A stretch of 27,297 bases of DNA from a virus. This document shows, piece after piece, positions 6,823 through 6,894 of the stretch (the stretch's first letter is position 1; the number at the start of each line of letters is the position of its first letter). The notes beneath the pieces were generated by a model. It ran no database searches and was not told the DNA's origin. It saw only the letters and a list, made by a program, of their open reading frames with translations. Both the position numbers and the translations under genes were made by a program. Where the stretch lies: the UHGV virus genome UHGV-0184544. One strand, given 5' to 3'.

Positions 6823-6894
6823 TGTAGCGGATCGCCGCGCGTATTGTAATCGGCAGCGCACCGATGGGAGCTGGTTCGATTCCGGCCGCCACAA
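6823..6894 (+). pseudogene. Degenerate tRNA-like element (tRNA relic) within the late leader
   Basis: Canonical T-arm (GCTGG-TTCGATT-CCGGC, 6870-6886), perfect 5-bp anticodon-type stem with 7-nt loop (ATCGG-CAGCGCA-CCGAT, 6849-6865), acceptor pairing 6/7 (TGTAGCG / CGCCACA), canonical overall spacing. But no D-stem, no U33, no encoded CCA. Confidence 0.35.

Follow-up and report, generated by a model that had tools for sequence, protein, structure and literature searches.

A tRNA-like RNA domain with an extra arm in the non-coding leaders of enterobacterial phages

The DNA analysed here, 27,297 nt of the virus genome UHGV-0184544 and referred to below as the window, carries downstream of a Q-like antiterminator gene a 130-nt RNA domain (6766-6895) that is shaped like a tRNA with an extra arm. 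The 72 nt flagged by the initial annotation as a tRNA-like unit (6823-6894) are the 3' part of this domain, whose D arm they leave out. The domain belongs to a family that is widespread in enterobacterial phages and so far undescribed; its fold is kept by compensatory change across phages, prophages and metagenomes, and it is a movable cassette found in non-coding leaders. We think it somewhat more probable than otherwise that this is an RNA family which mimics the upper half of a tRNA, is cut from leaders by host RNases and pairs with itself. To our knowledge tRNA mimics are rare in bacteria, the main examples being tmRNA and YrlA, and the domain, present in both temperate and virulent phages of enterobacteria, would add a third such architecture. 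The N leader and the late leader, where it is located, rank among the most thoroughly studied regulatory leaders of molecular biology, and the late leader also controls Shiga toxin in related phages. Annotation pipelines miss the domain or call a fragment of it 'tRNA-Ser'.

The elements of the domain and the features preceding it in the window are:

5877-6503, + strand: gene of a Q-like late antiterminator (phrog_753, 'anti-termination protein Q-like', E = 3.5e-68)
6664-6694, + strand: tR'-like intrinsic terminator, an 8-bp G+C-rich stem (6664-6671/6678-6685) followed by UUUUUGUUU
6696-6771, + strand: hairpin 1, a long stem whose tip varies, CACAAC at 6696-6701 pairing with GUUGUG at 6766-6771
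6766-6895, + strand: tRNA-like domain with a five-way junction (139.2 bits with covariance model R1, 26.5 bits with the Rfam tRNA model; covariation)
6766-6774, + strand: 5' strand of the closing, acceptor-like stem, GUUGUGGUG, forming 9 bp with CGCCACAAU at 6887-6895
6777-6790, + strand: D arm GCUC-AAUGGC-GAGC, with GG as in the tRNA D loop, aligned to the D arm of the Rfam tRNA model
6793-6847, + strand: extra arm of 55 nt (P3, P4 and GCGCGUA) between the D arm and P5
6793-6796 with 6844-6847, + strand: P3, with both-side changes in three of its four pairs
6800-6807 with 6828-6836, + strand: P4, with a 20-nt loop and both-side changes in 7-8 of 9 pairs
6815-6820, + strand: self-complementary hexamer ACUAGU in the P4 loop
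6837-6843, + strand: invariant GCGCGUA, 3' of P4 in the extra arm
6849-6865, + strand: P5, AUCGG-CAGCGCA-CCGAU, a perfect 5-bp/7-nt hairpin (the anticodon-type arm of the initial annotation)
6870-6886, + strand: T arm GCUGG-UUCGAUU-CCGGC, containing GGTTCGATTCC, aligned to the T arm of the Rfam tRNA model

The secondary structure was derived from 75 distinct sequences. Using R1 the domain was located in 79 of 82 sources at 127-160 bits, the range displayed by full-length members of the family, and in the window copy all 136 of the 136 model positions are aligned. This copy shows the complete layout by which R1 is defined, i.e. a closing stem, a D arm, a P3-P4 arm with a self-complementary hexamer, a P5 hairpin with a YAKCGCA loop and a T arm, with P5 ending four bases 5' of the T stem. 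The T arm and the perfect anticodon-type stem-loop had been recognized in the initial annotation and are read from the sequence as described there, but the start of the unit had been set 57 nt too late, and the D arm at 6777-6790, reported as missing, was overlooked for that reason. The acceptor stem then drawn between 6823-6829 and 6887-6893, with one mismatch, is a chance pairing, the real 5' strand being 6766-6774: among 71 distinct relatives 50.3% of its cells are paired as compared to 49.8% after shuffling, with no covariation. Within the same stretch, AUGUAGCGGAU (6823-6833, P4 loop and 3' strand) matches what we take to be an 11-nt stretch of E. coli tRNA-Cys; we regard this match as a coincidence because other family members do not have it, and it may have fed the impression of a 72-nt tRNA.

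Alignments A4 and A7 are fitted to the model; A3, a structure-blind MAFFT alignment of 20 diverse members, is not. Standard pairs occupy 95.2% of the pair cells of A3, against 32-48% when the 3' partners are slid by 1-3 columns, and 23 of the 39 pairs show changes on both sides. The observed values were reached in 0 of 500 shuffles, a statistic which is inflated by relatedness since the members are at least about 74% identical, although the slid controls, and likewise how many pair types occur, argue against relatedness as the whole explanation. Among 71 distinct viral and genomic copies 95.7% of the cells are paired and both-side changes occur in 27 of 39 pairs; for 37 distinct metagenome copies, gathered with a separate pattern placed on another part of the molecule, the corresponding values are 95.5% and 23 pairs. 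Taken together, the more than 200 copies have some 95% of their pair cells paired, compared to 29-48% in slid controls. The closing stem is 96-98% paired, with both-side changes in 5-8 of its 9 pairs, -1:73 and -2:74 among them, and the T arm is 99-100% paired, with such changes in 2-3 pairs, the one at 52:62 contributed by the metagenome set. Compensatory changes affect two pairs of the P5 stem (AUCAG/CUGAU, AUUGG/CCAAU, AUAGG/CCUAU), and the D arm is nearly invariant, with a single compensatory U-A in one sequence of the metagenome set (L161). G-U pairs are frequent, for instance 31 U-G at one closing-stem pair among the 71 distinct copies, which identifies the + strand as the RNA strand. 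Of two candidate tertiary contacts, neither gained consistent support. For a loop-loop contact between the GCGC of GCGCGUA and that of the P5 loop, judged by eye on the alignments in the registers tried, the variants GCGCGCA, GCACGUA and CAUCGCA are inconsistently compensated; for the canonical Levitt 15:48 pair, position 15 is A or G and position 48 a fixed A, so that there is no covariation.

Sorting about 148 loci by their neighbours gave four genomic contexts. The first, which includes most loci and the window, displays the order Q gene, terminator, hairpin 1 and domain, followed by the gene of a holin or another late gene, and its upstream Q-type proteins fall into several unrelated clusters, so the domain is linked to the position and not to a particular Q. 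In the window, the Q-like gene is preceded by NinG and NinH (Pfam), the terminator aligns with the tR' position of lambda and of HK75 (where Tr' is annotated), and the sequence after it is non-coding up to an esterase gene at 7923. The second context is the pL leader, where the domain lies between nutL boxA/boxB and the N start codon (L008, L018, L138, L128 and L147) and tips a long stem (GCUUUGGGGUGUGGUG.../...CACCACACC-A-CCAAAGC, or GCUUUGGGGUGUG.../...CACACC-A-CCAAAGC) that is homologous to, and in the same place as, the N-leader stem of lambda. Lambda folds this same stem with a tip of unrelated sequence that has no tRNA features; the window copy, unlike this class of relatives, lies in the late leader. 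In the third context the domain follows an HNH-endonuclease gene and its terminator, with a second terminator about 10 nt 3' of the domain; a riboswitch-like interplay with this second terminator was considered and rejected, as no consistent antiterminator complementarity was found in this class. The fourth context is a gap of 0.5-0.9 kb amid the tail genes of Skatevirus-like phages, to which the domain is antisense. This gap holds a good promoter-like site (TTGACA-17-TAGATT) and a hairpin with a T run, and real tRNA genes lie 5-100 nt downstream of the domain on the same strand. Wherever the direction is known, the domain is oriented as the surrounding leader transcription.

The product of the window's esterase gene (7923-9926, + strand) is 667 aa long and carries the domains DUF1737, SASA (sialate O-acetylesterase-type) and DUF6645; it is the counterpart of the 933W esterase gene located 3' of stx, and the phage displays the late-region layout of Stx phages without the toxin gene.

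Hairpin 1, which overlaps the closing stem of the domain by 6 nt, was recovered in the minimum-energy folds of all 34 distinct versions. Its stem shows compensatory changes between classes and bears at least 12 different tips, and it also occurs without the domain in HK629, in CUS-3 (annotated 'bsq4 boundary sequence') and in LPST49. CACAAC at 6696-6701 and CACAAU at 6890-6895 are direct repeats competing for the single GUUGUG at 6766-6771; since both need it, pairing at the base of hairpin 1 excludes pairing in the lower part of the closing stem and vice versa, and this competition could be a conformational switch or the footprint of an insertion.

The late leader of lambda has hairpin 1 and the 3' flank in common with the window, whereas between GUUGUG and CACAAC it holds an unrelated 72-nt segment in place of the 113 nt of the window, and for lambda R1 gives 12.2 bits, from the closing stem only. 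Lambda and the window differ by cassette replacement. It had been suggested that lambda lacks some 40 nt of this region; both flanks are indeed common and lambda is about 41 nt shorter, but a different segment occupies the site and there is no simple lack. These leaders act as sites of exchangeable RNA cassettes closed by a common stem, which bears on the evolution of phage non-coding regions. As a separate observation, no fewer than four inserts unrelated to one another are closed, in different phages, by the sequences CACAAC / GUUGUG(GUG) / (CAC)CACAAC, with such stems at window 6696-6771, lambda (L151) 1055-1144, L007 2569-2656, upstream of the domain in L133 and at the hairpin-1 tip of L006. 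The insert of the lambda late leader recurs as a hairpin-1 tip in Salmonella phage ST1UNAM.

According to the mechanism we propose, the domain of the window would be made only when Q permits read-through of the terminator at 6664-6694, and it would be the first structured part of the late transcript. Host enzymes of tRNA and rRNA precursors would recognize the tRNA-shaped top together with the long closing stem, or else hairpin 1: the acceptor/T-arm stack and elbow may be the target of RNase P, and/or the extended closing stem or hairpin 1 that of RNase III, as in the lambda N leader. Such a cut would separate the antitermination/terminator RNA from the downstream message and release a stable tRNA-shaped RNA, whose loop hexamer would allow pairing with another copy. 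Processing, stability and dimerisation of the RNA are predicted here, the RNase III part of the mechanism from the homology of the N-leader stem and from published work. Steege 1987, Kameyama 1991 and Wilson 2002 reportedly place the RNase III cut of the N leader in the large nutL-N stem. N, when bound to NutL, keeps its own translation repressed (PMC5725501), and a paper cited in the same article deals with the modulation of this repression by RNase III; the large stem of the lambda N leader, from nutL to N, is the subject of primary papers cited in PMC5371410 and PMC5725501. Against the mechanism counts the folding energy of the isolated 128-nt sequence, which is no better than that of shuffles (z = -1.1), as does the minimum-energy fold in the context of the window, where GUUGUG pairs in hairpin 1 and not in the closing stem. 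The domain is also unlike a normal RNase P substrate, given that -1:73 and -2:74 are paired and no CCA is conserved. In its favour, the unconstrained minimum-energy fold of the whole N leader of L008 recovers the five-way junction atop the stem (z = -4.8).

It is possible, if rather unlikely, that the domain is instead a purely cis-acting element of the leader, a folding or processing platform on which the 5' end, stability or translation of the first downstream gene (N, holin or esterase) depends, with no role as a free RNA. The location in 5' leaders, immediately before the first gene of an operon, agrees with such a platform, as do the replacement of the tip of the lambda-type N-leader stem with the stem itself retained and the unrelated inserts that lambda and other phages carry within the same closing stem at the same sites. 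However, the near-invariance of loops and junctions (GCGCGUA, YAGCGCA, T loop and D loop), together with a hexamer that covaries, far exceeds the needs of a spacer or cut site, and the Skatevirus-like and HNH-class copies lie between promoter/terminator signals or beside tRNA genes and not before a coding gene.

The hexamer of the P4 loop is self-complementary in every copy (69 of 69 and 37 of 37 distinct sequences), in seven versions: ACUAGU, UCUAGA, UCGCGA, GCUAGC, ACCGGU, UCCGGA and UCUGGA. UCUAGA, UCUGGA and UCCGGA form a series of changes passing a G-U intermediate, which is the classic path. A loop whose self-complementarity is so strictly kept predicts an RNA-RNA contact. Since a palindrome of 6 nt is unable to fold back on itself and no further copy of the hexamer was found in cis within 1.5 kb, a loop-loop contact of two molecules is the simplest reading, and we infer that the hexamer mediates contact between two molecules of the domain. 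Loop-loop dimerising RNAs are represented by the retroviral dimerisation initiation site and the phi29 pRNA, which likewise use a short covarying self- or partner-complementary loop, although their fold and biology are unrelated and the dimer is only predicted for the domain.

More speculatively, and in our estimate improbable, the domain could be a self-dimerising mimic of an arginine tRNA, released early from the N leader or late from the Q leader, that serves as a decoy or titrant of a host factor. The target would then read the tRNA shape and the C35-G36 anticodon loop, candidates being arginyl-tRNA synthetase, an enzyme that modifies or repairs tRNA, or an anticodon nuclease, either from an anti-phage defence system or of the colicin type. 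If this were true, it would follow that the STnc100/PasD sRNAs descend from the same tRNA-derived cassette.

Regarding the comparison with tRNA itself, at relaxed thresholds all 71 positions of the Rfam model (RF00005) align at 6768-6894 with E = 0.0027, and the score falls under the 29-bit cut-off because 74 nt take the place of the 18-nt anticodon region. The alignment comprises the acceptor UGUGGUG/CGCCACA, the D arm, the 74 nt and then the T arm, and the resemblance exceeds chance. The domain shares with tRNA the acceptor-like stem, the GG of the D arm, a T arm of the form GGUUCGAnUCC with a GTTCRANYC-type loop, and the 5-bp/7-nt hairpin. It departs from tRNA in the 55-nt arm inserted at tRNA position 26, in the P5 loop CAGCGCA, where A33 and C37 are fixed and non-canonical, and in A8 where tRNA has U8. 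Seven acceptor pairs are present, but -1:73 (UA/GC/AU) and -2:74 (GC/AU/GU/UA) are paired and covarying, leaving no free discriminator, and CCA is not conserved and follows the stem in some classes only; the lack of U33 and of an encoded CCA had been correctly seen before. The P5 loop varies at positions 32 (C/U) and 34 (G/U) alone, with one exception (AAUCGCA in L139), and with G or U at position 34 its 'anticodon' is GCG or UCG, both of arginine. When ARAGORN was applied to the window it called neither tRNA nor tmRNA, and in 13 relatives it called no gene at the domain. The family model gives real tRNAs 15-30 bits, and the sole match to the tmRNA clan, in a relative, reached 11 bits against a cut-off of 84.

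That the domain is a working if aberrant tRNA which is aminoacylated and decodes, for instance an arginine tRNA bearing an extra arm, seems very unlikely to us. Its acceptor-like stem, D arm with GG and canonical T arm, a hairpin with arginine anticodons at the right distance from the T arm, the UCG carried by argN of 933W and the occupation of tRNA gene slots would all suit such a molecule. They are outweighed by A33 and C37 in place of the near-universal U33 and purine 37, A8, the paired and covarying discriminator without a conserved CCA, the conserved 55-nt arm between D and anticodon arms, and the negative outcome of ARAGORN (0 of 14 sources) and of the Rfam cut-off. As pointed out in the initial annotation, tRNA genes of Stx phages occupy the same late-leader slot, with Q/pR' on one side and lysis or toxin genes on the other (ileZ-argN-argO in 933W), and P22-like phages also have tRNA genes there, with Asn and Leu tRNAs in phage L (PMC8022706). 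The homology to ileZ, argN and argO envisaged there did not hold up, these genes giving 15-25 bits with the family model against the 127-160 bits of members, which is a generic likeness only; specific descent from them was rejected, with nothing found beyond general tRNA similarity.

Also very doubtful is a DNA-level element without RNA function, i.e. a recombination boundary, an insertion site or a palindrome bound by a protein. Closing-stem sequences of the form CACAAC ... GUUGUG ... CACAAC do border inserts that differ from phage to phage, CUS-3 has one copy labelled 'boundary sequence', and the hexamers are mostly palindromes of the restriction type. Nevertheless, the frequent G-U pairs of the + strand would correspond to C-A mismatches on the opposite one, the hexamer version UCUGGA, which is common, is no DNA palindrome and self-pairs only as RNA, via G-U, and the orientation matches leader transcription wherever this is known. 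The decaying tRNA pseudogene or attachment-site remnant proposed in the initial annotation is hardly credible, despite the scores under tRNA thresholds and a Skatevirus record that labels the last 58 nt 'tRNA-Ser', considering that every helix shows compensatory changes in place of uncompensated mismatches (95-96% paired, 23-27 of 39 pairs changed on both sides, more than 200 copies), that the same architecture recurs in four unrelated contexts and several genera, and that no integrase adjoins the site; what stands of that proposal is a tRNA-related structure in the late leader.

Among known RNAs, YrlA, a group of tRNA-like bacterial Y RNAs with D-like and T-like arms and no general free CCA end, also occurs in phages, and one or more of its members are RNase P substrates (PMC4201824). 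Both YrlA and the domain are non-coding RNAs whose conserved D-like and T-like arms mimic tRNA. YrlA is encoded beside Ro60/Rsr and has a Ro-binding stem (PMC4201824); no rsr gene was found among the examined ORFs of the 27.3-kb window, the neighbours of the domain being Q, NinG, NinH and the esterase, and the Y-RNA families of Rfam gave no match, with only tRNA matches between 6500 and 7100 at E<=10. The tRNA gene cluster of T4 encodes two small stable RNAs, RNAC and RNAD, of unknown role (PMC3014915), which are similar, by description only, as phage small RNAs transcribed with tRNA genes in a different phage group.

BLAST was run with positions 6600-7050 (451 bases). The query is identical in Escherichia phage PhiR5_2, and the part from about 6697 to 6894 is conserved at 75-95% across several phage groups: lambdoid phages such as HK75, with the domain between Tr' and the holin gene, some 90 Salmonella Skatevirus-like phages, with the domain amid tail genes, and Pantoea phage PdC23. 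Pattern scans recovered the domain in at least 120 viral contigs, 62 metagenome contigs and 4 species-representative genomes (Klebsiella, Enterobacter, Superficieibacter and one Cellvibrionaceae MAG), and among 5426 complete E. coli genomes 158 (around 3%) carry the element in full, none of them with an annotation of it; a copy that is 100% identical occurs in E. coli strains NCTC9112 and G1/2. No listed copy carries a RefSeq annotation, the 'tRNA-Ser' label being that of one deposited Skatevirus record, and a full-text literature search found no description of the element; tRNA hits nearby are all that is mentioned in a 2026 preprint devoted to the neighbouring Pas/STnc100 sRNAs (10.64898/2026.05.13.724894).

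The Cellvibrionaceae copy (L129, 4319-4453 of the 9.7-kb contig JAUVQU010000080.1, 153.6 bits) is more likely due to contamination or mis-binning than to a genuine host, given that its R1 score, length and G+C equal those of the E. coli/HK75-type version and that the MAG is of marine type. PhiR5_2 has a hypothetical protein, XSB41379.1, annotated across the domain (window 6779-7018, - strand), which is probably spurious in view of the RNA covariation and of non-triplet indels among relatives.

Neither the window copy nor an N-leader copy matched any of the 4227 Rfam models, and at gathering thresholds the window yields only two tandem copies of STnc100 (RF02076) at 7044-7237 and 7513-7721 (+ strand; 139.9 and 129.8 bits), which lie between the domain and the esterase gene and each end in a terminator-like hairpin. 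The RF02076 model gave no match at 6766-6895. Both copies are the next-best matches of R1 in the window (16.8 and 8.6 bits), and STnc100/PasD resemble the domain in the closing stem (UGGUG/CACCA), in AA(U) and a first arm after it, and in a last hairpin abutting the closing stem; STnc100 and the domain may share descent from a tRNA-like cassette. STnc100/PasD have no T-loop or D-loop motifs and, unlike the domain, possess their own terminator hairpin, and they are described as base-pairing sRNAs (bioRxiv 10.64898/2026.05.13.724894). A weak R1 match in 933W (L153, 5803-5928, + strand, 13.5 bits), located between stxB2 and the esterase gene, is probably an element of the STnc100/PasD type.
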